From contig CAZBHK010000001.1 of assembly GCA_964491895.1 (NCBI GenBank), forward strand, positions 9,870 through 73,869: a DNA stretch of 64,000 nucleotides. The letters run 5' to 3'. Position 1 is the stretch's first letter. Every line of letters begins with the position of its first letter. The notes under the pieces were generated by a model. It was given only the letters and a program-made list of their open reading frames with translations, was not told where the DNA came from and ran no database searches. The DNA is from an uncultured Pseudomonadota bacterium (GTDB taxonomy: Bacteria; Babelota; Babeliae; Babelales; UBA12411). This document shows, in pieces, positions 1,849 through 27,146 of this stretch. The translations under genes were made by a program, and so were the position numbers.

Positions 1849-1921
1849 GCGCGTAGCTCAGTGGTAGAGCATTGCTTTGACGTAGCAAGGGTCAGCGGTT
1901 CGATCCCGCTCGTGCCTACCA
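1847..1921 (+). tRNA. tRNA-Val (anticodon GAC)
   Basis: Hand-folded cloverleaf: acceptor AGGCGCG/CGTGCCT, D arm GCTC-AGTGGTA-GAGC, anticodon arm TTGCT-TTGACGT-AGCAA, T arm AGCGG-TTCGATC-CCGCT, encoded CCA. The first 2 nt lie inside the rpoC stop codon. Confidence 0.9.
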
Positions 1922-1955
1922 TTTGGTTAAATAATTAAAAATTTGGTGTAAACAT

Positions 1956-2210
1956 ATGATAATAAATAAGAAAACAATAATAACAAAGTTTGCCAAAACA
2001 GATAAAGATGTTGGTTCAGTTGAAGTGCAGATAGGGTTACTAAGTAGCCGTATTAATCAGATATCAACACATCTTAGGACATTTCCTAAAGATAAACACT
2101 CACAAGTAGGCTTGCAAAAACTTGTTGGTAAAAAGCGAAAGCTTGAGACTTATCTCAAGCGTACAGACAAGGCAAGCTTTGAGAATATTATAAAACAATT
2201 AAATAAATAA
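1956..2210 (+). CDS. rpsO: 30S ribosomal protein S15
   Basis: 84 aa. GSVEVQIGLLSSRINQISTHL...KDKHSQVGLQKLVGKKRKLETYL is a typical S15 sequence, and the classic rpsO-pnp pairing is present. Confidence 0.93.
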   Translation: MIINKKTIITKFAKTDKDVGSVEVQIGLLSSRINQISTHLRTFPKDKHSQVGLQKLVGKKRKLETYLKRTDKASFENIIKQLNK

Positions 2211-2220
2211 ATTTGGATCC

Positions 2221-4308
2221 ATGATTAAAAAATATAAATTAGATGCACTTGGTTTAGAAGTAGAATTAGGCAAATATGCTCGTCAAGCAAATGGTGCGGC
2301 TTGGATTAAATCGGGAAATAATATAGTTTTAGCTACAGTAGCAGCTTCAAAAGAAGCTAGAGATTTTATGGGATTTTTCCCACTTACTGTAGAATATAGA
2401 GAAAGAATGTCTGCAGCTGGAAAGTTTCCTGGTGGATATATAAAACGAGAAGGGCGTCTTTCAGATTTTGAGGTTTTGAGTTCTCGTTTAATAGATAGAC
2501 CTATTCGTCCATTATTTCCGCATTATTATTTTAATGAAGTTCAGCTTCTTGCTACAGTGTTGTCTTCAGATGGTAAATTTCCGTCAAATATATTGGCGTT
2601 AATTGGTTCATCTTTAGCTCTTACTATTTCTGACATACCATTTCTTGGTCCTATTGGAGCTGTTAGAGTTGGTAGAATCAATGGAGAATTAACATTTAAT
2701 TTTGGTCATGAAGAGAAGAAAAATTCTGATGTTAATATAACTGTTGCTGGCACAGCAGAAGGTATATTAATGGTAGAGGGTCATAGTGATTGTCTTAAAG
2801 AAGAAGAGTTAACAGAGATTCTTTTTAAAGCTCATGAGATTATTAGACAGCAGGTTCAATGGCAACTTGAAATACAAAAAGAGATTGGTAAGCCTAAGAA
2901 TGAAATGGTAACTAGTTTTGATTGGGCTGATTGGAAACTTAAAATTAAGTCTGTATTACCAGTAAATTTTACAGATCGATTTTTTGCAGACAACAAGATT
3001 GAACGTGGTCTTGCAATGAGTAAGCTTCGTTCTGATATACATGTTAAATTTGTAAAAGAATTAGAATCTAAATTAGTTACTACAACACAGATAGATTATT
3101 TGTTTGATGAGATAATTAAATCAGCAATGCCGGATGCTATTATAGCTAAAAATAAGCGTATAGATGATCGAGCATTTGATGTAGTTCGTCCTATTAGTAT
3201 AGATATAGGATTATTGCCACAAGTGCATGGCTCTTCAGTATTTCAAAGGGGAGAGACACAGGCTCTTGTATCTGCAACACTTGGTACAGGTCAAGATGCT
3301 CAGAAAATTGAGCCACTTATTGGTGATTTATTAGAAAAAACTTTCTTATTGCATTATAATTTCCCTCCATTTGCAACTGGTGAAGTTAAACCAATTCGTG
3401 GTGTTAGTCGTAGAGAAATTGGTCATGGATACTTGGCTGAACATTCATTTGATAGTGTACTTCCAAGTGCTGATGAGTTTCCTTATACAATCAGAGTTAT
3501 ATCTGATGTTTTAGAATCTAATGGTTCATCTTCGATGGCTACAGTTTGTGGTACAACAATGGCATTAATGGATGCTGGTGTTCCACTTAAGGATATGGTT
3601 GGTGGTATAGCAATGGGTCTTATGAAAGATTCAAAAGGTAATTTCCAAACACTTACTGATATCTTGGGTACAGAGGATGCTTTTGGTCTTATGGATTTTA
3701 AGGTTACTGGTACTGAGAAGTATATTACAGCTGTTCAGATGGATATTAAGGATAAGGGTGGATTATCTAAAGAGATTTTAGATAGCGCATTAGCACAAGC
3801 TAAGAAAGCTCGTCTACATATTTTGGCAGAGATGAAAAAAGTTTTAGCTGCTCCACGTTCTGAGATATCTTCGCTTGCTCCTCGTATACATAAGAGCAAG
3901 ATTGATCAGGATAAGATTGGTTTAATTATTGGACCTGGCGGTAAGACAATTAAGGAGATTATTCTTAAGACTGGTGTTGAAATCGATATTGATGATGATG
4001 GTACAGTTAAAGTTTTTAGTAGAGATGAAAAGTCTGCTAAAGAAGCATTGAATATTATCAAGAGTTTAGCTGGAGACATAGAGTTAGGATCTACATTTAC
4101 TGGTAAAGTTAAGAAGATTTTTGATTATGGTTTATTAGTAGAGCTCTTTCCTGGTAAGACTGGACTTGTGCATATATCTGCACTTTCTAGAGCTAATCAG
4201 AAAGATTTTGCAAATAAGTTTAAACCAGAAAGTGATATCTTAGTTAAAGTTGTTGACGTAGATAGAAGAACAGGTCGTATTCAGCTTGTTGCTCCAGAAC
4301 TTGAATAA
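2221..4308 (+). CDS. pnp: polyribonucleotide nucleotidyltransferase (PNPase)
   Basis: 695 aa with two RNase PH-like halves (FPLTVEYRERMSAAGKFPGGYIKREGR; SNGSSSMATVCGTTMALMDAGVP), then KH (GPGGKTIKEI) and S1 (GKVKKIFDYGLLVEL) domains. Confidence 0.96.
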   Translation: MIKKYKLDALGLEVELGKYARQANGAAWIKSGNNIVLATVAASKEARDFMGFFPLTVEYRERMSAAGKFPGGYIKREGRLSDFEVLSSRLIDRPIRPLFPHYYFNEVQLLATVLSSDGKFPSNILALIGSSLALTISDIPFLGPIGAVRVGRINGELTFNFGHEEKKNSDVNITVAGTAEGILMVEGHSDCLKEEELTEILFKAHEIIRQQVQWQLEIQKEIGKPKNEMVTSFDWADWKLKIKSVLPVNFTDRFFADNKIERGLAMSKLRSDIHVKFVKELESKLVTTTQIDYLFDEIIKSAMPDAIIAKNKRIDDRAFDVVRPISIDIGLLPQVHGSSVFQRGETQALVSATLGTGQDAQKIEPLIGDLLEKTFLLHYNFPPFATGEVKPIRGVSRREIGHGYLAEHSFDSVLPSADEFPYTIRVISDVLESNGSSSMATVCGTTMALMDAGVPLKDMVGGIAMGLMKDSKGNFQTLTDILGTEDAFGLMDFKVTGTEKYITAVQMDIKDKGGLSKEILDSALAQAKKARLHILAEMKKVLAAPRSEISSLAPRIHKSKIDQDKIGLIIGPGGKTIKEIILKTGVEIDIDDDGTVKVFSRDEKSAKEALNIIKSLAGDIELGSTFTGKVKKIFDYGLLVELFPGKTGLVHISALSRANQKDFANKFKPESDILVKVVDVDRRTGRIQLVAPELE

Positions 4309-4331
4309 ATAGAAAATATTTATTATTAGCT

Positions 4332-4859
4332 ATGTTAAACAAGAAACTATTACTAGCCTTAGCTCTGTTGATATTTCCGTTTTGTGCAAAAAAAACACAT
4401 AATCATGTCAATACTAGTATTTTTATTGAGATGCCAAGAAATTTAACAGTTTTTGAAAATATAGCTCCCATGATCTATGATGTTACGTGGGAGCATTTTC
4501 AAACGGTTGGTTTTGATCTTGCTTATAATCAAAATAGTGAATTTAAATTATCAACAGATATTAGAGCATTAGAATATCCAGAACAATTTATTTCTCCAGA
4601 CCTTTTACCATATATGTTTAAGGTAAAGATGGAATTGGAGTGTAAGTTATTTAGATTGGATAAACTTATTGTTACTAAAACATTTAAATTTTTTAAATGG
4701 ATAAATAGACCCAAAAATCCTATTTTTAACTGGACTTATATAGAAGATCAGTATAAAACAATGTTTGAGGATTCTGTAGCGAGAATTGATCAATTTTTTA
4801 GGCCATATTTAATTAAAAAAAAATCAGTATTTGATTTATATCAAGAACAAGAGAAATGA
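4332..4859 (+). CDS. putative lipoprotein (LptE-like by position only)
   Basis: 175 aa with an N-terminal hydrophobic signal ending ...LIFPFC. It lies immediately upstream of, and overlaps (ATGA), the holA-like gene, as in the lptE-holA arrangement of other Gram-negatives. No sequence motif was recognised. Confidence 0.3.
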   Translation: MLNKKLLLALALLIFPFCAKKTHNHVNTSIFIEMPRNLTVFENIAPMIYDVTWEHFQTVGFDLAYNQNSEFKLSTDIRALEYPEQFISPDLLPYMFKVKMELECKLFRLDKLIVTKTFKFFKWINRPKNPIFNWTYIEDQYKTMFEDSVARIDQFFRPYLIKKKSVFDLYQEQEK

Positions 4860-5809
4860 ATTTTGAAACTTTTTTAAAAGAGTCAAAAAGTAAATCTTTT
4901 TGGAATAAAAAAGAGTTACTTTGTTTTGTGGGTAAAATGTATCCACTCCTTTTCTTTACAAAGCTGTTTGAATTTATTGTGAAAGAACAAGTTTGTGATA
5001 AGCCCATCAATGTTGCTTGGCAGGAAAAGGATAGAGTAGAATTATATTCTCTTTTACAACAAAGTTTCTTAGGAGAACGCTCTATATTGTTTTTAGGTGA
5101 ACTCTTATATAAAAAAGAAGATTCTTTTTTTAAAGATGTCATATCATATAATGGTGATAATAAACTTATTTTTTTTGTTAATGATGAGATATCTTTAAAG
5201 GGTTTAGATAAAGAACACATTGTTATTTTAGATGATATTATTAATCCAAAATTATTTACCAGGTTACTTACTTTTTTTAATAAAGAAAATTTAGTTAAAA
5301 AAACTGTATTAATCGATAATATTTTTTCTAGAAGTCAAAGTTTATCTTTAGAAGCAGCTTGTAGAATTTTTGATTATTTAGAATTGGTCAATGTGCAATC
5401 GGCTGCAAAGTTTAAGCAATATATTGCTTTGTTAATATATCCTGACAAATCATTTTTTACGTTATCTAATTATTTTTTTTCTAGGAACAAACAATTTTTC
5501 AAGTTATGGGAAGAGCTTGCTGATGATTTTGGACCATTGTTTTGGATAAGTTATTGGTCTGAACAAATTTGGAAGGCGCATCATGTTTGTAAATATATGA
5601 AACAAAATAATATAGTTCAAGCAAAGAAAATGAGCCTAGGATTACCATTTTCCTTTACCAAAGGTTATTGGCAAGACTTCTCACAACAAGAGCTTATTAA
5701 TGAATATAGTTTTTTATATCGCTCAGATTGTGCTTTAAAATTAGGATCAACATTCCCTTTGCTTGATTTATTTTATTCTAAACATTTTCAAAAAGAATTT
5801 ATTGCATAA
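4856..5809 (+). CDS. holA: putative DNA polymerase III subunit delta
   Basis: 317 aa. Size, position after an LptE-like lipoprotein and a helical C-terminal region (LWEELADDFGPLFWISYWSEQIWKAHHV...LYRSDCALKLG) resemble delta-subunit domain III. The similarity is weak. Confidence 0.45.
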   Translation: MNFETFLKESKSKSFWNKKELLCFVGKMYPLLFFTKLFEFIVKEQVCDKPINVAWQEKDRVELYSLLQQSFLGERSILFLGELLYKKEDSFFKDVISYNGDNKLIFFVNDEISLKGLDKEHIVILDDIINPKLFTRLLTFFNKENLVKKTVLIDNIFSRSQSLSLEAACRIFDYLELVNVQSAAKFKQYIALLIYPDKSFFTLSNYFFSRNKQFFKLWEELADDFGPLFWISYWSEQIWKAHHVCKYMKQNNIVQAKKMSLGLPFSFTKGYWQDFSQQELINEYSFLYRSDCALKLGSTFPLLDLFYSKHFQKEFIA

Positions 5810-18085: not shown

Positions 18086-19399
18086 TTAACGTTTGTCTTT
18101 AAACCGTATTTCATTTCTTAGCTTGAAGATTCCATAAAGATTTATTGTTAAAAGTAGCATTCCCGTAATGGACATTATCATTAAGTTATGTCTTTCTTCT
18201 CCAATGAATGAAAAAAATATTAAGGCACAAAAAGCATATAAGAAGTAGCCTTTTTTCCCATACTTAACAGATACGAACATTGCGGCTTTTTGTCCTGCTG
18301 AGAAATAAGATATAACAGTTGAATATCCAAGTAGGAAGATAAATATAGGCCAAATTATTTTTACATAAGGAAAATATTGTTCTAGTGCAGCTGCTACAAC
18401 ATAATCTTCATGGATCCCGTCTGTCCATACCCCGGTAACAAGTATTAAGAGAACACTTAGCGTACATATCACAAATGTATCAAGTAAGATTCCTATAATG
18501 CCTAGCACTGCTTGTTTATGTGGATCTGTTTCTTGTGTTTCGCTGTGGATAATAGAAGCATAACCTACTCCGATGTCTTCGCTGTAGCAAGCTCTTCTTA
18601 CGCCTTGTGATATTGTTATTATTAATGAGCTTCCTAAGAATGCTCCAACAGCTGCATGTCCAGTAAATGCTGATTTAAAGATAGAATAGATAATAGAAGG
18701 AAAAACCGCTCTTGTTTTAAAAAAGATCCACAAACTCATTAATGAAAATGATACAATGAAGATAGGAATTATCACGCTGCTTATGCGTCCTACTAGTTTT
18801 ATACCACCTTTACTTGTAAATAATACAATAATTAAAAGAAAAATGGTTACATAAAGTTTATTTAAATTCCAAGTTGTTGAAATACTATGACTCATGATTC
18901 TAAAGATATAAATTTCAACACCGTATATACATAATAGAATGCTTACTAAATATGGAATGAATTTGGTTTTGAATACTTTTTGTAGAAAGATCATAGGCCC
19001 TCCATCATAGGTACCTTGATCATTAGCTATACGGTATTTAATTCCTAAGAAAATTTCTGAATATTTTACAATCATTCCTAGTAGAGCGGTAATCCACAGC
19101 CAAAATACTGCGCCAGGACCACCAATTTGTACGGCTGTTGCGACACCAACAATATTTCCTATACCTATTGTTCCTCCAATGGTTGCAAAAAAAGCATAAA
19201 GAGGGTGTATACCACGACCATGTTTTTTTTCAGGACCAAGTAGATTTATGAAACGTTTGAATATTTGAGGCAGTTGTATTATTTGTATCCAGTTGGATTT
19301 ATATGAGAAATATAATCCTAAGATTACAATTGCAGGCGCACCTATAAAATTCCAAAAAGTATTATCTATTTTATCTAGAAAATCTAAAAATTGTTCCAA
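18086..19399 (-). CDS. alanine/glycine:cation symporter (AGCS family), copy B
   Basis: 437 aa tandem paralog of copy A. The first 123 residues are identical, with scattered substitutions afterwards. Confidence 0.88.
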   Translation of the reverse strand: MEQFLDFLDKIDNTFWNFIGAPAIVILGLYFSYKSNWIQIIQLPQIFKRFINLLGPEKKHGRGIHPLYAFFATIGGTIGIGNIVGVATAVQIGGPGAVFWLWITALLGMIVKYSEIFLGIKYRIANDQGTYDGGPMIFLQKVFKTKFIPYLVSILLCIYGVEIYIFRIMSHSISTTWNLNKLYVTIFLLIIVLFTSKGGIKLVGRISSVIIPIFIVSFSLMSLWIFFKTRAVFPSIIYSIFKSAFTGHAAVGAFLGSSLIITISQGVRRACYSEDIGVGYASIIHSETQETDPHKQAVLGIIGILLDTFVICTLSVLLILVTGVWTDGIHEDYVVAAALEQYFPYVKIIWPIFIFLLGYSTVISYFSAGQKAAMFVSVKYGKKGYFLYAFCALIFFSFIGEERHNLMIMSITGMLLLTINLYGIFKLRNEIRFKDKR

Positions 19400-19400
19400 T
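19028..19400. repeat. 373-nt block identical to 17670..18042 (5' part of AGCS copy B)
   Basis: See the partner repeat. The remainder of the two genes is visibly diverged (many silent and replacement differences). Confidence 0.8.
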
Positions 19401-20139
19401 CAATTTTTCCCTTATAAATAAGTTTTGCATTGGCTGTTAATATTACTTGTTCATTTTTCATTGTGCATGAAAGATCGCCCCCAGACATTCTTATAACACA
19501 ATAATCTAGGTTATCAAATTTATTTAGTGTAGTCATCACTGACAATGCACCAGAGCTACATGAAAGTGTATATCCACAGCCACGTTCATACACAAGCATA
19601 TTATAAGTATTAGGTTCTTCTGATGGCCAAATAAATTCAACATTGGTTCCATTTGAAAAATCGGGGTGTTTTTCTAGAGAACCACCATTAGCTTTTAGCC
19701 AAGTAGGGGTAGTTTCTTGAAAAACAATGAAATGTGGATTAGGTGCATGTACTACATGACCGTTATAACCATTAACGATTTTTTCACACTGGTAGGTTGC
19801 TTTTGAAACGATTGTAGTTATTGATTGATGTTGGATTCGGCATTCAATTTGTTTGCTGCCCATTTCTATAAAGAAGTTATTTGGAAAACTATGATGTGTA
19901 TACAGGTGTTGTGCTAGGCATCTTAGACCGTTAAGACAAAGCTGTCCTAATGAACCATCGGAATTATAAATAATACCTTGAGGTAAACCATTATTAGTAA
20001 GTATTAGTACTCCATCGGCACCTATTCCAAAATTTCTGTCGCAGAGCTTTTTTATATCTGGTAATGGCTGTTGATTATCTTTATAAAAATCTAAAACAAT
20101 AAAATCATTGCCTAGAGATTGATATTTGAAGAATTCCAT
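19384..20139 (-). CDS. dapF: diaminopimelate epimerase
   Basis: MEFFKYQSLGNDFIVLDF, with the two catalytic Cys contexts LNGLRCLAQ and GYTLSCSSGA. 251 aa. Confidence 0.88.
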   Translation of the reverse strand: MEFFKYQSLGNDFIVLDFYKDNQQPLPDIKKLCDRNFGIGADGVLILTNNGLPQGIIYNSDGSLGQLCLNGLRCLAQHLYTHHSFPNNFFIEMGSKQIECRIQHQSITTIVSKATYQCEKIVNGYNGHVVHAPNPHFIVFQETTPTWLKANGGSLEKHPDFSNGTNVEFIWPSEEPNTYNMLVYERGCGYTLSCSSGALSVMTTLNKFDNLDYCVIRMSGGDLSCTMKNEQVILTANAKLIYKGKIDWNNF

Positions 20140-20142
20140 TGC

Positions 20143-21054
20143 TTAGAAATTGAATACCTTGTTTAAGTATGCTCTTCCTGAATCAGCTAGTATAATAACC
20201 ACAATATCATTTTCGGACAATTGTTTTGCTTTTTCTAAGGTCACTTGCATTACTGCACCGCTTGATATACCAATTAAGAGTCCTTTATGTGCAATTTTTT
20301 TTGTAAGTTCAAATATTGGTTCATCTTCAACTGGTACTATTTCGTCTATAACGGATCTATCTAATGTATCACTGATTACATCAACACCAATACCTTCGGC
20401 TTTATATTTTTTAGGGACTGCACTTGAAAGTCTAGATGTTGCAGCATCAACGCCTATTATTTTTATGTTAGGATTTTGTTCTTTGAGGTATTTTCCTACT
20501 CCTGAGATAGTGCCACAGCTACCCATACCGCAGATAAAATGAGTAATTTTGCCATCAGTTTGTTTCCATATTTCCGGACCAGTTGTTGAATAATGTGCTT
20601 TAGGATTGGCAGTGTTATAGTATTGGTTTGGCATGAATGCGCCTGGGATTTTACGTAGTAGTTCTTTTGCCTTGGCGTGGTAACCATTAGGATCTTCTAG
20701 GTTGTCTGTATCGGGGCAAACATAAACTTGTGCACCATATGCTCTTAGTGCACCTATTTTTTCTGTACTAGTTCTATCTGGTACAGTTATTATTACATCA
20801 TAGCCTTTATAGGCACCTATCATTGCTAGAGCTATACCTTGATTGCCGGATGAAGCTTCTATGATTGTACCGCCTGGGTTTAGTAAGCCGATAGTTTCTG
20901 CTTCTTCGATCATAAAAAGAGCAGCACGATCCTTAATGCTTCCCCCTGGATTGAGGTATTCTAGTTTTGCTAATATTTGTGGTTTAGTGCCGAGTTCTAG
21001 TTGAATCATTGGTGTGTTACCAATAAGTTGTAAGATATTTTTATACTTGTTCAT
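20143..21054 (-). CDS. cysteine synthase / CBS-family PLP-dependent enzyme
   Basis: 303 aa. NPGGSIKDRAALFMIEEAE carries the PLP lysine, plus GMGSCGTISGVGKYLK and SSGA motifs. CysK, CysM and CBS cannot be distinguished by eye. Confidence 0.8.
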   Translation of the reverse strand: MNKYKNILQLIGNTPMIQLELGTKPQILAKLEYLNPGGSIKDRAALFMIEEAETIGLLNPGGTIIEASSGNQGIALAMIGAYKGYDVIITVPDRTSTEKIGALRAYGAQVYVCPDTDNLEDPNGYHAKAKELLRKIPGAFMPNQYYNTANPKAHYSTTGPEIWKQTDGKITHFICGMGSCGTISGVGKYLKEQNPNIKIIGVDAATSRLSSAVPKKYKAEGIGVDVISDTLDRSVIDEIVPVEDEPIFELTKKIAHKGLLIGISSGAVMQVTLEKAKQLSENDIVVIILADSGRAYLNKVFNF

Positions 21055-21156: not shown

Positions 21157-22569
21157 ATGATTCGTGTTCGGTTTGCTCCATCTCCTACGGGCTATATGCA
21201 TTTAGGTAATATAAGAGTGGCATTGTTAAATTATCTATTTGCACGTCAAAAAAATGGCAAATTTATTTTAAGAATTGAGGATACGGATCAAAAAAGAAAC
21301 ATTGATCTTGGAGATCTTAAGATTGTACAAGATCTTGACTGGTTAATGTTGACCTATGATGAGGGTCCAAGGATTGGAGGTCTCTATGCTCCATATCTGC
21401 AATCTGAGCGAACTAATATTTATAAAGAAAAATTACAAGAACTAATAGATGCTAGCAAGGTTTATAGATGTTTTTGTACTGATCAAGAATTAGAGGTTAG
21501 GCGTGCAAGGCAAATAGCCTTAGGGTATCCACCACGTTATGATCGAGCATGCTTAGGAATGTCTGATGATATGATTAAACAAGAGCTTGTCGAAGGTCGA
21601 CTATTCATATGGAGGCTGAAACTTAATGAAAATGCAGTTGTTGAGATTGATACCTTGGAACGTAATAAAATAAAATTTGAACTTAAAAATTTTGGTGATT
21701 TTGCACTTACTCGTTCAGATGAGAGTTTTACTTTTATGTTTTGTAATTTTGTTGATGATTGGTTAATGGCTATAACCCATGTTATAAGAGGAGAGGATCA
21801 TCTTTCTAATACAGCTATGCAGGGAGCTCTTTATGATGCATTTGCTGTGCCACTTCCCAAGTTTTGGCATTTACCAATCTTATGTGGACAGGATGGGAAA
21901 AGACTCTCTAAAAGAGAATTTGGGTTTGCATTAGAAGATTTAAAAAAGGCTGGTTTTTTACCATATGCTATATGTAACTATTTGGCTGTTTCTGGTAGCA
22001 CCTTTAAGGAAGAGATTCAGAGTCTAGATGATTTATCCAAGAATTATAATTTTGATCATATACATTCAACAGGGCATATAAGATATGATGTTGAAAAGCT
22101 CAAATGGTTTAATCATAAATGGATGATGAAGTTAGATAGTCATGATTTAATAGCTTATGTGAGACCATTATTATCTGAAAAATTTTCTGTATTAGATGAT
22201 AATAAATTAATTTATCTTCTAGATAAGGTTAAAAATGATGTTAAAACTTTAGTTGAATTAGAGCCAGAATTGGCCTTTTATGTTAGTGAGCCTAATATGG
22301 AATTTCAGGATTTAGAACAAGAGTTTGGCCTAGAAGCATCTCAAAAGGCACTAAGACTAGTATTAGATAGAATTGAAGATATACAACAACCAGATTATTT
22401 CCTTAACGGTATTAAAAGGGTTGCTAAAGAGATGGGGCTTGACTTGAAGGTCTTATTTGGAGTTTTGAGGTATATGCTTACTGGTAAGTTTCAAGGTCTT
22501 GGAATTAAAGATCTTTTAGAAATTTTAGATACTGAAGTGTTGGTTAATCGTATTAATCGATTTAAATAA
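21157..22569 (+). CDS. gltX: glutamyl-tRNA synthetase
   Basis: VRFAPSPTGYMHLGNIRVALLNYLFAR...ILRIEDTD (HIGH-type motif) and GKRLSKRE (KMSKS-type motif). 470 aa. Confidence 0.93.
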   Translation: MIRVRFAPSPTGYMHLGNIRVALLNYLFARQKNGKFILRIEDTDQKRNIDLGDLKIVQDLDWLMLTYDEGPRIGGLYAPYLQSERTNIYKEKLQELIDASKVYRCFCTDQELEVRRARQIALGYPPRYDRACLGMSDDMIKQELVEGRLFIWRLKLNENAVVEIDTLERNKIKFELKNFGDFALTRSDESFTFMFCNFVDDWLMAITHVIRGEDHLSNTAMQGALYDAFAVPLPKFWHLPILCGQDGKRLSKREFGFALEDLKKAGFLPYAICNYLAVSGSTFKEEIQSLDDLSKNYNFDHIHSTGHIRYDVEKLKWFNHKWMMKLDSHDLIAYVRPLLSEKFSVLDDNKLIYLLDKVKNDVKTLVELEPELAFYVSEPNMEFQDLEQEFGLEASQKALRLVLDRIEDIQQPDYFLNGIKRVAKEMGLDLKVLFGVLRYMLTGKFQGLGIKDLLEILDTEVLVNRINRFK

Positions 22570-22810
22570 GCTTATTATCGATTAATCTGTTTGGTAATTT
22601 TTCTAAGGTTATTACAATGCCACCTTTTTGGAATAATTCCATAAAATAGAGAAATTCTTCTTCAAAGTCTGGTATAACAAAAAATTCAAGAATATCATTG
22701 TTTTTATCAAGGGTTCTATCAAAAACCCAGTTTTCTTCATTTTTTAAAATACCGGTAACAAACCATAACTTATTGCGTAGAATTTTAGCTTTATAGTATG
22801 AACAATACAT
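22562..22810 (-). CDS. hypothetical small protein
   Basis: 82-aa ORF overlapping the gltX stop by 8 nt (convergent). No motif recognised; coding status rests on ORF length only. Confidence 0.4.
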   Translation of the reverse strand: MYCSYYKAKILRNKLWFVTGILKNEENWVFDRTLDKNNDILEFFVIPDFEEEFLYFMELFQKGGIVITLEKLPNRLIDNKLI

Positions 22811-22883
22811 AATAATCCCTCACTTTTACTTTATATCATTTTTATCAAAAATCCCAGTCTCTTTATAATTATTTTTAATAATA

Positions 22884-22913
22884 TTGACTATTTGAAATAA
22901 TATCATGTAATCT
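22884..22913 (+). promoter_or_regulatory. candidate sigma70-type promoter of the structured RNA
   Basis: TTGACT (22884-22889), an 18-nt spacer, then TAATCT (22908-22913). The alternative is TTGAAA (22892) with TATAGT (22916). Both would start transcription at about 22920-22930. Confidence 0.35.
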
Positions 22914-22927
22914 GAATATAGTTAGAA

Positions 22928-23139
22928 AATAACGAAGTGGTTACACAGTCTACCTCGTGTAGTTGAAGGGTGTAATAATCCGCTATCTTGACCACTTTGT
23001 GAAAAATCGGGGGCGATTATAAGGTCTGCCTTGTGCAGCTAAAGAGGCGTAAGAAGCCTGCTATAATAGTCACTCTCGTCTAGTTGATCGTAGGGCTAAG
23101 GCAACTGTTTTCTTTTGTAAGACAGTTGCCTATTATTTT
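22928..23139 (+). ncRNA. unclassified structured leader RNA / sRNA with three homologous modules and an intrinsic terminator
   Basis: A locally GC-enriched stretch in a 404-bp AT-rich divergent intergenic region. A 10-bp helix 22932-41/22991-23000 encloses module 1 (22953-75). A 6-bp helix 23016-21/23062-67 encloses module 2 (23029-52, about 18/23 identical to module 1). Module 3 (23073-99) abuts the terminator stem. Confidence 0.6.
23100..23139 (+). terminator. intrinsic terminator of the leader RNA
   Basis: GGCAACTGT (23100-08) pairs with ACAGTTGCC (23122-30), followed by TATTATTTT. It lies 75 nt upstream of the transporter start codon. Confidence 0.7.
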
Positions 23140-23214
23140 GTTCCAGGCTGGCAATTTTTTTAAAACTTTCATATAATCAAAGTTTAACTTCTTTAAAGAT
23201 AATGAGAGTTTATT

Positions 23215-24390
23215 GTGAAAAAAATATCTTTGCCAGTACGGCTGGTCATAGTTCTATTATTTGTTTTTATTTTTGGTAGCTATGTTAATAAAGAATTGAT
23301 TCGTGTATTTTATACGTTTAGCCTAGCCTTTAAGGAATTGTTAAGTTTATTTTTACCATTTATTGTTTTCTTTTTTATTGCCGCGGGTATTTTATCATTT
23401 AAGAAGAATGCTGCTAAGGTTTTATTTTTTATAATGACCTCTATCATTCTTTCTAATACTTTAGTAGCTATGTTTACCTATGGGGTGAGTTGTTTTACCT
23501 TATCTTTTATCACTAAAGGGATAGATGTAAAAGAGCTTTTATATCCTGGTGACAATATAAAACCATTTTTTAAGTTACCAGCATTATCAGATATTGTTTC
23601 GCTATATACCTTATATATTATGCTTTTAGCATTAGCTATAGGTTTAATATTATCATTTACAAATTTCCTTAGAATTGAAAAATTTATTCAAAATGGAAAA
23701 AAGATAGTAGAAAATATTTTGAATAAGGGTTTTATCCCATTCATTCCAGTTTATGTTATTGGTTTTTTATTGGAGATAAAATATAGGGGTGGTTTCATGA
23801 TGCTCTTCCAATCTTATGGAAAAGCATTTGCTCTTATGGTGTTAATGCATTGGGTTTATTTATTCATGGTGTATGTAGTAGCCAGTGGTTTTAATATTAG
23901 TGAGGCTTTATTATACATAAAGACATCTATGGCAAGTTATTTAACTGCATTTAGTACTATGTCTAGTACTGCTACTATTCCTGTTACTACAAAATGTGCA
24001 GAGCAAAATACTGGTAATGCAGGTCTTGCAGCAGTTGCTTCACCTATTATGGCAAATGTTCATTTGATAGGAGACGGTATTTCTACTCCTATTTTATCCT
24101 TAGTAAGTATGTCTATTTTTTTAGGCTTTATTCCAGGTATTGAGCAATATTTGAAATTTGTATTTTATTTTTGTTTAACAATGCTTGCCACTTCAGGTGT
24201 TCCTGGAGGTGGTGTTATTGCTGTTATTCCAGTTTTAAAATCTGTCTTAGGATTTACTCCAGAGATGGTAAGTGTTATGTTGACTCTCTATTTTCTACAA
24301 GATTCTTTTGGTACTGCAGCCAATGTTATGGGAGATGGAGCGTTAATGATTATAGTTAATAAGTGGCTTAAACGTTTTAAAATTTTTTAA
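23215..24390 (+). CDS. dicarboxylate/amino acid:cation symporter (DAACS family)
   Basis: 391 aa, polytopic. AFSTMSSTATIPVTTKCAE, SGVPGGGVIAV and QDSFGTAANVMGDGA match the SDF/DAACS signatures. GTG start preceded by GAGAG. Confidence 0.85.
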   Translation: MKKISLPVRLVIVLLFVFIFGSYVNKELIRVFYTFSLAFKELLSLFLPFIVFFFIAAGILSFKKNAAKVLFFIMTSIILSNTLVAMFTYGVSCFTLSFITKGIDVKELLYPGDNIKPFFKLPALSDIVSLYTLYIMLLALAIGLILSFTNFLRIEKFIQNGKKIVENILNKGFIPFIPVYVIGFLLEIKYRGGFMMLFQSYGKAFALMVLMHWVYLFMVYVVASGFNISEALLYIKTSMASYLTAFSTMSSTATIPVTTKCAEQNTGNAGLAAVASPIMANVHLIGDGISTPILSLVSMSIFLGFIPGIEQYLKFVFYFCLTMLATSGVPGGGVIAVIPVLKSVLGFTPEMVSVMLTLYFLQDSFGTAANVMGDGALMIIVNKWLKRFKIF

Positions 24391-24423
24391 TTTTAGCAGC
24401 AATTATTTTTGAAAGGACTTTTT

Positions 24424-25623
24424 ATGAAAAAAGAAGGTAAAATTGGTTTAGGTGCAGCGGCTGTTATAGGTATTAATGCTATGATAGGAGCAGGGGTTGT
24501 TGGTATGCCTGCAGTTATATTAGCTTCTGGTTCAGGTCCTGCAGGAATTTTGGGTTATACATTAACAATAGTGATTGCGATATTTATTGGGCTATCTATA
24601 GCCAATGTTGCAGAAATATATCCAGAAAAGGCATGGAGCTATGCTTACGCTGCTAGATGGGGTGGCCATACAGTTGGTATGGTTTCTGCATGGTGTTATG
24701 TGATTGGTGTGCTTATTGCAATGGGTTTTATAGCACAACAAACAGGTGTTTGGGTACATGATTATTTTTTACCAAATACTAATCCACAGTTAATAGGAGC
24801 ATTGATTTTAGTGATTCTTGCTGGACTAGTATTAGCTGGAGCAGAAGCTTCATCATTCGGTCAATATATTATTGTTGCTTTTGTATTGATACCACTTATT
24901 ATTACTAGTTTTATTTGTTGGTTAAATTTGAATCCTATTGTTGTTCAAAATTTTTCGATTGTTGATATTAGGATAGGTTCGGTATTTTCTATAGCATCAA
25001 CAGCCTTGTATACACTTATGGGTTTTGAAAGTATTGCTTCTTTATATTCGTCTATTAAGAATCCTAAGAAAAATGTTTCACGGGCATGTGTTATTTCTAT
25101 TTTGATAGTTGGAAGTTTATATATGTTTTTTGCCAGTGGGGTTTTGTTATCAATACCTGAAGCTTTTTTTATTAATGGTTTAGATCAGAGCTTGGCAAGT
25201 ATCATATCTCAGGCATTTCCTAAGTTTACATATTTATCCACCTTACTTTTAATTGGTGGATTATTTGCAATGATAGGAACATTACATTCTATGATATGGT
25301 CATTGAGTTCTTTATTAACTGATGTGTTAGAAAAATCTAATTCAAAAGTTGTTAAAAATCTTTTGAGAGAAAAAGTTTGGAATAATACAATTTCTATATT
25401 GGTAACATCAGGCGTTATTATGTTAACAGCATTATTTATAAAACCTGGTACAATTCTTTCTGCTACGGTTATTTTTATTGCATTAACATATGCGTTATCT
25501 TCAAGTTTATTATTTTTTGAAAAAAAGGCATGGTTATCAGGTAAAAACATTATTACTTTATTGGCTGTTTCTGGGTGTTTAGCAATGATGTATTTTGCAT
25601 TTAGTGAAATTATTGCTTTGTAA
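24424..25623 (+). CDS. APC-superfamily amino acid permease
   Basis: About 400 aa with about 12 hydrophobic segments and an N-terminal GINAMIGAGVVGMP motif typical of APC permeases. ATG at 24424 is preferred over the listed TTG at 24409. Confidence 0.65.
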   Translation: MKKEGKIGLGAAAVIGINAMIGAGVVGMPAVILASGSGPAGILGYTLTIVIAIFIGLSIANVAEIYPEKAWSYAYAARWGGHTVGMVSAWCYVIGVLIAMGFIAQQTGVWVHDYFLPNTNPQLIGALILVILAGLVLAGAEASSFGQYIIVAFVLIPLIITSFICWLNLNPIVVQNFSIVDIRIGSVFSIASTALYTLMGFESIASLYSSIKNPKKNVSRACVISILIVGSLYMFFASGVLLSIPEAFFINGLDQSLASIISQAFPKFTYLSTLLLIGGLFAMIGTLHSMIWSLSSLLTDVLEKSNSKVVKNLLREKVWNNTISILVTSGVIMLTALFIKPGTILSATVIFIALTYALSSSLLFFEKKAWLSGKNIITLLAVSGCLAMMYFAFSEIIAL

Positions 25624-25760: not shown

Positions 25761-27146
25761 GTGCGTATCTGCACTAATAAAAAATATTTATTTTTTTTAA
25801 TTTTTATCTCAGGATCATGTTTTTCCGCACCTGTTAATATGTACAATGATCCGGTTGTTTTCCATAATATAAATGGAATAAACCCTTTTCCTCCACAGGC
25901 GAAAAAGAGAATGCATAGTATTGATTTTGCTCCATTTTATCAATCTTCCAATAATGCTAAAAATATTCATGGCGAGAAGGTACCAGCAGGAGATAGAATT
26001 GGTCGTTGGAATATGCTTGGGCTATTACAAGGTCAGGCTGCTGCTTCTGGTAATTTAAATAGTGTCCAACCAGCTGGTTTTTTAGGAGATTTAACACCTA
26101 CTTTAAGTACGGCTATTTTAGAATTAAATCGTGTTCCAGGCCAAGGAAATAACTATTTGGATGAAAATTTTAGTGATAGTACACATACATTTGGATATTA
26201 TTCTGTTCCTTTGGATTATGAAAAAGTTGGTGTGCGAGGCAATATAACCTTTAATTTAATGGATAATTTAAGTTTTAGTATTAAGGGTGGTTTTGCTTAT
26301 TATAAACAAAGTCCAATTTTTAATGATTTAACCAATATTTCTACTAATTATAGTTTTTCAGATCTTGATATAGCGTTGACGCAGACCTTTCTTGATATAG
26401 CGTTGACGCAGACCTTATTGATGTTGGATGGTAAGCGTCAGGCGATTGCTAATGAGATAGGTCTTAACCTTGATTCATATTCAGCAACAGGTTTTGAAGA
26501 TATTTATCTTTCTATACTTTGGAATGAACGTTTTGGTATGGATGATGATGAAGGTAATCATGTAGTTACAGTTGTTCCTTATTTAGAAGCAGGTGTTTGG
26601 ATACCAACTGGTGAGAAAAAGGATCAAAATATAGCTTTTTCATTACCCATGGGTAATGATGGATTTTGGGCATTTACGGCAGCTGGAGGTCTTAATTTTG
26701 ATTTCATAGATTCACTTTATGTAGGTTTTGGTGGAAATATATCGATTTTTAATGATCAAATACAAAGAAACTATAGGGTTCCTTCAAGTAATAAGCAGAG
26801 TGCAATATATCCCTGGAAGACAACAATTAAGAAAAGGCCAGGTATAAGCTGGAATTTACATGCTGGGGCTAAGGCAGAGAATTTTGTTGAGTTCTTATCT
26901 CTATATGTTAATTATATATATTCAAGGCATGAGAAGGACAATATATCTGTTTTAAATTATGCTTCCTTGTTTAAGCCAGATAAGCTAGAATATGAGTCTG
27001 TATGGTCTAGCCAGAATGTGCATGCTGGTTTTGAATATAAGGTTACAAAGAACTTGTGTTTTGGAGTAGCTATTCAGTTTCCGATTACTGGAAAGCAAGT
27101 CTATAAGACAGTTACTTTACAGGGTGATCTTAGATTTAATTTCTAA
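25761..27146 (+). CDS. putative outer-membrane beta-barrel protein (porin-like)
   Basis: 461 aa. GTG start with an AAGAGGAG SD sequence and a signal peptide (LFFLIFISGSCFSAP). Gly/aromatic-rich alternating segments and the C-terminal ...LRFNF (terminal Phe) are typical of OMPs. Confidence 0.6.
   Translation: MRICTNKKYLFFLIFISGSCFSAPVNMYNDPVVFHNINGINPFPPQAKKRMHSIDFAPFYQSSNNAKNIHGEKVPAGDRIGRWNMLGLLQGQAAASGNLNSVQPAGFLGDLTPTLSTAILELNRVPGQGNNYLDENFSDSTHTFGYYSVPLDYEKVGVRGNITFNLMDNLSFSIKGGFAYYKQSPIFNDLTNISTNYSFSDLDIALTQTFLDIALTQTLLMLDGKRQAIANEIGLNLDSYSATGFEDIYLSILWNERFGMDDDEGNHVVTVVPYLEAGVWIPTGEKKDQNIAFSLPMGNDGFWAFTAAGGLNFDFIDSLYVGFGGNISIFNDQIQRNYRVPSSNKQSAIYPWKTTIKKRPGISWNLHAGAKAENFVEFLSLYVNYIYSRHEKDNISVLNYASLFKPDKLEYESVWSSQNVHAGFEYKVTKNLCFGVAIQFPITGKQVYKTVTLQGDLRFNF
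26364..26417 (+). repeat. 27-bp in-frame tandem duplication (x2) inside the OMP gene
   Basis: cttgatatagcgttgacgcagaccttt followed by cttgatatagcgttgacgcagacctta (26/27 identical), encoding LDIALTQTF / LDIALTQTL. Confidence 0.95.

Follow-up and report, generated by a model that had tools for sequence, protein, structure and literature searches.

The window analysed here is a stretch of 64,000 nucleotides (~32% GC), and the element under study lies in a 404-bp gap within it (22811-23214), bordered on one side by a minus-strand open reading frame (ORF) of 82 aa and on the other by the gene of an SDF/DAACS symporter, which precedes that of an APC-type permease (Table 1). Inside the gap, the GC content rises to 0.46–0.47 compared to ~0.25 around it. 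A repeat search detected a direct repeat (family D1) in three copies, at 22947-66, 23023-42 and 23068-87, as well as a 10-bp helix (22932-41 / 22991-23000) enclosing the first of them. An initial annotation of this DNA had pointed out the gap, the GC-rich island, the threefold repeat, this helix and a terminator, all of which we recovered, and had interpreted the ensemble as a ligand-sensing leader of the transporter genes. We conclude that the GC-rich stretch is a real structured RNA family, apparently new and with a very narrow known distribution. Our preferred reading of its role, held with a little less than even confidence, is that the region constitutes a non-coding RNA gene, giving rise to an independently transcribed modular small RNA (sRNA) that acts mainly as a multivalent binder in trans.

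Table 1. Features of the RNA locus and its neighbours, in window coordinates
Feature	Position	Strand	Details
82-aa ORF	22562-22810	-	divergent; 8-nt overlap with the gltX 3′ end; synteny anchor of the RNA locus
Predicted RNA promoter	22884-22913	+	-35 TTGACT 22884-89, 18-nt spacer, -10 TAATCT 22908-13 with TG before it; read from the sequence
Module 1, intact three-way junction	22933-22999	+	covariance model R1, 60.2 bits, E 1e-11
A-rich single-stranded linker	23000-23008	+	UGAAAAAUC, between modules 1 and 2; read from the sequence
Module 2, intact three-way junction	23009-23077	+	covariance model R1, 64.4 bits, E 1e-12
Degenerate third repeat	23068-23098	+	copy of the module 5′ half (family D1); small hairpin UAGUC/GGCUA abuts the terminator
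Predicted intrinsic terminator	23099-23141	+	AGGCAACUGUUUU / AAGACAGUUGCCU plus tail AUUAUUUUGU; hairpin 23099-23131, 13 pairs
Promoter-like site	23148-23177	+	CTGGCA-18-TATAAT, 10/12 matches; between terminator and DAACS start
SDF/DAACS symporter gene	23215-24390	+	Pfam PF00375, E 5e-45; GTG start
APC-type permease gene	24409-25623	+	Pfam PF13520 and PF00324

The closest non-self relative of the DAACS protein is 61% identical to it, and the labels attached to relatives of this protein are Candidatus Babeliales, Dependentiae or Chromulinivorax; judging by these labels, the window probably originates from the Babeliales/Dependentiae group. Members of the Dependentiae (TM6) live inside cells, have reduced genomes and are either uncultivated or dependent on amoebae. 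The identical RNA region is present in two independent samples (loci L003 and L047), and neither an ORF of note nor a conserved ORF falls within it.

What does this RNA look like? A module of ~68 nt is predicted to form a three-way junction, composed of a closing helix P1 (~11 positions) whose sequence differs by module type, a joining strand J1/2 reading UAAA, UAAG or CACA, a first hairpin stem P2 of the form G-[U bulge]-CUGNG...CNCAG-C, a joining strand J2/3 of 2–3 nt, a second stem P3 of the form AAG-A-GGN...NCC-U-[G bulge]-CUU, and a short J3/1 of 0–4 nt. In module 1, the helices are P1 22932-43 / 22989-23000, P2 G(U)CUAC/GUAG(U) and P3 (AAG)GGU/AUCC(GCU); in module 2, they are P1 GGGGGCGAUUA 23009-19 / UAGUCACUCUC 23067-77, P2 G(U)CUGC/GCAGC and P3 AAGAGGC/GCCU(G)CU. 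The initial annotation had closed module 2 by a 6-bp AUUAUA/UAUAAU helix, which fits worse than the 11-position P1: the latter contains one mismatch, is in register with P1 of all other modules, and is the pairing on which covariance-model alignment and free-energy fold agree. Since this P1 pairs 23009-19 with 23067-77, the start of what had been proposed as a third module is the 3′ strand of module 2 P1, with the first 10 nt of the third repeat serving in both capacities. This third repeat is a significant sequence repeat that runs into the terminator, as had been noted (16/20 positions identical to 22947-66 in module 1; P ~1.5e-4 by simulation), but it is a degenerate half-copy and not an intact module: with the filters of the covariance model switched off, only two intact modules were found in the window and the third repeat went undetected.

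The modules are flanked by the signals of a transcription unit. The sigma70-like boxes upstream of them, already part of the initial annotation, would place the start of the RNA at ~22920. A consensus scan omits this TTGACT/TAATCT pair because its -10 box matches at only 3/6 positions, and the promoter, of the form TTGAC[T/A]..TGAAA..TG/GG-TA[A/T].., is conserved in four lineages, namely that of the window and those of loci L001, L008 and L044. At the other end, the terminator with its T-rich tail before the DAACS gene was likewise recovered. It is one of two terminator-like sites found by consensus scan as compared to 0.4 expected, and the terminator domain (23067-23141) has a folding z-score of -4.9. 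Its outer stem together with the tail (AGGC...GCCU-AUUAU) is similar to module 2 P3 (AGGC...GCCU-GCUAUAAU), and judged by this likeness the terminator may have descended from a third module. The initial proposal of homologous, helix-enclosed, aptamer-like modules that belong to no known family, the last of them fused to a terminator, therefore stands in its essentials. Just 3′ of the terminator, GGCAA followed by T7 (23150-23161) coincides in part with the -35 box of the promoter-like site, which itself may, on weak evidence, be an independent operon promoter. This GGCAA, suggested earlier as an alternative partner of the terminator 3′ arm UUGCC, is indeed present, albeit at 23150-54, one base from where it had been placed.

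The comparison that carries the structure comes from L001, an ENA scaffold of the same organism as the NCBI metagenome-assembled genome (MAG) JAGMEA01 (Candidatus Babeliales RS_18_31), which bears the 61%-identical DAACS gene. Synteny with the window encompasses gltX, the small ORF and, further on, DAACS, APC, an unknown gene, S21, RbfA and KpsF. Directly beside the small ORF, behind a near-identical promoter (1747-1776; TTGACA-18-TAAAAT, 11/12 consensus matches), L001 harbours six tandem modules (1805-2304) arranged as three A-B dimers (period 169 nt, 3 copies, 96% identity), with a UAAAAAU linker after each A module that is comparable to the A-rich linker of the window. The module cores of the two lineages align base for base and share the conserved core UAUAA(A/G)GUCUG...CAGC(G/U)(A/C)AAGAGGNGU...CCUGCU; covariance model R1, which was built from them, gives 77–94 bits for the six L001 modules and 60 and 64 bits for the two of the window. 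The flanking proteins of the two carriers are only 54–61% identical, and yet core sequence and fold have been kept.

The aligned sequences indicate that this fold is maintained through compensatory change. In a model-fitted alignment of the eight modules, 96.8% of cells are paired compared to 30–48% in slid controls, and 10 of the 23 pairs have changed on both sides (seven in P1, two in P2, one in P3). Bases close to the junction are conserved, helix sequences vary yet stay paired, and loops vary. Free-energy folding of each module alone gives the same junction. The folding z-scores amount to -4.7 and -5.2 for L001 modules and to a modest -1.9 and -0.85 for those of the window, so that support for the structure derives from the comparison with the second lineage rather than from thermodynamics. 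With respect to strand, the plus strand folds better (-18.3 and -19.5 kcal/mol vs -12.7 and -12.5 kcal/mol for the minus strand) and all covariance-model matches lie on it. No variation is seen between modules in the lower part of P3 (AAG/CUU); in some free-energy folds (L001 module A), the AAG of J1/2, which is just as conserved, takes over the pairing with the conserved GCUU. A kissing contact between the two hairpin loops (L2-L3) was indistinguishable from chance.

Does the module belong to a known RNA family? Searching the window against Rfam 15 with cmscan, a check that the initial annotation had recommended, yielded only three tRNAs at the gathering score, none of them in the region. Relaxing the cutoff to E<=10 for 22780-23260 brought up unrelated families, the best at 20.9 bits vs a threshold of 60; the L001 array likewise matched nothing in Rfam, and ARAGORN reported no tRNA or tmRNA gene at 22700-23400. 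The earlier statement that the sequence resembles none of the glycine, T-box, lysine, SAM, TPP, SRP, 6S or tmRNA consensus structures thus holds against the Rfam 15 models, and none of the purine, glnA, preQ1, ykkC or ribozyme models reached its threshold either. In its architecture, the module is reminiscent of the 'tuning fork' junction of purine riboswitches, with P1, two side-by-side hairpins of ~6–7 bp, a conserved junction and variable helices. Unlike in the purine riboswitch, however, the strands joining the helices are quite short (J1/2 4 nt, J2/3 2–3 nt, J3/1 0–4 nt), the loops are not conserved, loop-loop pairing does not exceed chance, and there is no match to RF00167. A compact module with covariation support, a conserved junction, no Rfam family and 2 to 6 copies makes for a candidate class of aptamer or protein-binding RNA, and its size of 68 nt suits direct biochemical screening. 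A further proposal, which we regard as distinctly doubtful, is that the three-way junction is a ligand-binding aptamer of a class not seen before, with arrays of several copies serving either to titrate its ligand or partner in trans or to gate the terminator cooperatively. The ligand could be a metabolite that these host-dependent bacteria have to import (an amino acid or a nucleotide, for example) or, alternatively, the ferredoxin-like 82-aa protein encoded next to the RNA. A full-text literature search found no paper on riboswitches, non-coding RNAs or other regulatory RNA of Dependentiae. If true, the phylum would thereby gain its first described regulatory RNA, and an unusual aptamer in that it forms a copy-number-tunable array.

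Is the RNA a leader of the transporter genes? In the window, it sits on the same strand directly upstream of DAACS-APC, with the terminator hairpin ending 84 nt before the GTG start codon. Its two aptamers could accordingly sense a metabolite, such as the transported amino acid, and set the choice between termination and read-through in cis, as a tandem riboswitch or attenuator; the ~220-nt terminated product would then be a by-product or double as an sRNA. A conserved, covarying aptamer-like fold is a generic feature of riboswitches, and such a fold is present here (two lineages, model-fitted alignment). The 3′ strand of module 2 P1, the third repeat and the terminator 5′ arm are moreover contiguous, an alternative hairpin overlaps the base of the terminator, and the U-tail is imperfect. 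As in tandem-aptamer riboswitches (glycine, NAD+-I/nadA), homologous helix-enclosed domains are arranged in series and followed, in the window, by a terminator and transporter genes. In contrast to those riboswitches, there is no Rfam match, conservation of the gene link is missing, no gene follows the six copies of the relative, and an anti-terminator is not evident. The free-energy folds contain no convincing one: the only structure competing with the terminator is a weak 8-pair hairpin, GUCU+AGUU / GGCU+AGGC (23078-85 / 23094-23102), that overlaps 4 nt of the terminator 5′ arm, and the promoter-like site after the terminator also speaks against control of this kind.

The genomic context in relatives bears on the same question. 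Downstream of the L001 array lie two genes on the opposite strand, convergent with it, and the L001 DAACS gene is located 1.7 kb away behind its own 115-nt upstream region, which is free of modules. Upstream of ~40 other Dependentiae DAACS genes, the gaps (14–330 nt) are AT-rich and unstructured and lack modules, and a conserved 5′-leader position before a coherent gene set was seen neither in L001 nor at any of 79 other DAACS loci. In L001, the pair of minus-strand genes that separates array and DAACS could have been inserted later. Six tandem copies in front of a bidirectional-looking terminator with nothing downstream are, however, not riboswitch-like. Of the initial idea of a ligand-sensing attenuator, the aptamer-like modules and the terminator consequently remain, but not the transporter association; and inspection of related loci, also proposed at the time, revealed a structure that is kept with compensatory pairs in a context that is not. 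Because the array of the other lineage is not upstream of a transporter gene, the RNA more likely has an sRNA gene of its own than a role as transporter riboswitch, which we consider possible though unlikely. More generally, aptamers, a terminator and transporter genes lined up in one genome can be misleading as long as the synteny of relatives has not been checked.

The L001 array ends with P1 of its last module and U6, preceded by an A-tract, in what looks like a bidirectional terminator. In this last module, B3 (2225-2312), AAAA stands upstream and UUUUUU downstream, where B1 and B2 have GAAGA upstream. P1 of B3 looks adapted to terminate transcription intrinsically in both directions, serving the convergent gene 2312-2968 as well.

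Given the head-to-tail order of the modules and the short A-rich single-stranded linkers in both species, one may also ask whether the array serves as a precursor from which individual structured RNAs of ~70 nt are released, either through self-cleavage, which would make it a new small ribozyme, or through a host RNase acting at the linkers, in analogy to processed repeat arrays. Clustering of the conserved bases around a three-way junction is also what small ribozymes show. None of the known ribozyme families matches, however, linker lengths are irregular (5, 8 and 23 nt), and no gene for a processing enzyme is found nearby, which renders this the least probable of the possibilities considered. 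A hammerhead in particular was rejected, its core CUGANGA being absent (J1/2 is UAAA, UAAG or CACA) and Rfam giving no hammerhead match.

How widespread is this RNA? Neither in ~1.1 Mb of related and control loci nor in the rest of the window did any other sequence score above 17 bits with covariance model R1, and 79 metagenomic Dependentiae DAACS loci together with 12 small-ORF loci, searched by nhmmer, Tandem Repeats Finder (TRF) and the covariance model, contained no further modules. Scanning GTDB genomes with the DAACS protein did not uncover a relative. An exact scan for the core pattern in genomes returned 34 stretches, of which only two contigs of one Babeliales MAG were real and the others chance matches of at most 17 bits; 23 matches in viral contigs were all due to chance, and JGI metagenomes gave none, a collection that is incomplete in that a known identical JGI contig was missed as well. 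Used as protein bait for further arrays, the spurious minus-strand ORFs of the L001 array produced no matches. Several contigs stop at or within the array (L044 1-30, 2–3 nt past the -10 box; L016 1-250; L042 40-108), and the NCBI MAG JAGMEA01 is split inside it. As short-read contigs break at such arrays, the copy number in L001 is uncertain and the distribution probably under-counted.

The small-ORF loci L004, L005, L006, L151 and L152 are devoid of the RNA. At L008 (3830-3885, minus strand), a promoter of the window type, TTGACTATTTGAAA...GGTAATCT, is directly followed by a hairpin AUAGG...CCUAU plus U6. The 3′ arm and tail of this hairpin resemble the window terminator, and an unrelated gene of 262 aa without a Pfam match comes next. 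By its sequence, L008 resembles a promoter-terminator cassette left 'empty' by the loss of its modules.

Such a narrow occurrence raises the question of whether the element has any dedicated function at all, or is instead an amplified palindromic repeat akin to miniature inverted-repeat transposable elements (MITE) or repetitive extragenic palindromic (REP) sequences, or else a structured terminator or insulator between divergent genes. The very narrow distribution, with absence from related lineages that retain promoter and small ORF, the recent tandem amplification in L001 (96% identity) and the L008 cassette would all fit. Against this, core and fold have been retained despite the divergence of the flanking proteins, P1 changes are compensatory, conserved terminal repeats are lacking, and dispersed copies occur neither in the window nor in the loci, making an element without function improbable. 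As to a MITE or REP in the strict sense, we discarded this possibility, as there are no dispersed copies in the 64-kb window or the 1.1 Mb of loci and the P1 arms differ between copies yet stay complementary.

How might an independently transcribed sRNA of this type work? An RNA of ~220 nt would extend from the promoter to the terminator and comprise two intact ~68-nt modules plus a decayed third copy, which supplies the 3′ strand of module 2 P1 and leads into the terminator. Each module would bind the same partner, be it a small ligand or a protein, and the RNA would act mainly as a stand-alone sponge or decoy whose capacity is set by the number of modules, two here and six in the relative. 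We infer multivalent binding in trans because the junction is conserved but the loops vary, because module number differs, and because the transcription unit appears autonomous. In this genome, polymerases that read through the imperfect U-tail may contribute to transcription of DAACS-APC, which would be a secondary, lineage-specific effect of position. The arrangement recalls the Csr/Rsm sponge sRNAs (CsrB, RsmY/Z), which are likewise stand-alone sRNAs with their own promoter and terminator and a variable number of repeated units, except that the units are 68-nt three-way junctions here and short GGA hairpins there. A CsrB-like mode was dismissed since GGA is not conserved, the corresponding purine-rich sequence in the P3 5′ strand being AAGAGGA, AAGAAGG, AAGAGGC or AAGGGU. 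Type III toxin-antitoxin arrays (ToxI-like) are similar in layout only (promoter, tandem RNA repeats, terminator, gene), and each repeat here is longer and has a closing helix of its own; this relationship was rejected as well, for the downstream gene is PF00375 (SDF) and not a ToxN/AbiQ-type RNase, and L001 has no same-strand gene downstream.

Several observations weigh against an autonomous RNA gene. The RNA is known so far from only two Babeliales (Dependentiae) lineages; the alignment was fitted to the covariance model and, with two lineages, samples few independent evolutionary events; and modules within one genome are more alike than modules of different genomes. The window RNA lies on the DAACS strand close upstream of the start codon and has an imperfect U-tail. 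At L008, a promoter and short terminator hairpin before a protein gene fit use as a leader or attenuator, a point shared with the riboswitch explanation. The promoter-like site after the terminator counts for little in such AT-rich DNA (9 sites of this kind found in 1 kb vs 4.8 expected by chance). Finally, the neighbouring 82-aa ORF, a possible source of a partner, also occurs in lineages that lack the RNA, and the fold of its product is generic.

This neighbouring protein has only 19 homologs among 5.8 billion clusters and matches neither a Pfam family nor a PDB sequence. Its confident AlphaFold2 model (pLDDT 86) adopts a ferredoxin-like beta-alpha-beta-beta-alpha-beta arrangement, for which Foldseek returned only generic neighbours of the ACT, RAM, PII and Atx1 types (best E 0.04). 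The protein carries aromatic and basic residues that are conserved, as well as a KLPNR motif at its C-terminal end. A role as RNA-binding partner, possible but unsupported, was set aside in view of the generic fold, the lack of a match specific to the RNA recognition motif (RRM) and the occurrence of the protein without the RNA.

The wider surroundings of the small ORF contain genes of amino-acid metabolism. A minus-strand cluster 5′ of gltX (18086-21054) encodes a PALP-family (cysteine-synthase-like) protein, a DapF-like epimerase and an AGCS Na+/alanine symporter, and at L006 (4338-6206) PALP and DapF-like genes come directly after the small ORF. This points to a repeated association of the small ORF with amino-acid genes. 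Reached via a distant DAACS homolog, L124 contains ~50 copies of a repeat with a 76-nt period (1879-5642) that is CRISPR-like and unrelated to the modules. Downstream of the transporters, a plus-strand ORF of 461 aa (25761-27146) without a Pfam match follows the APC permease gene in a syntenic position, and has counterparts of 457–489 aa in L001, L002, L004 and L005.

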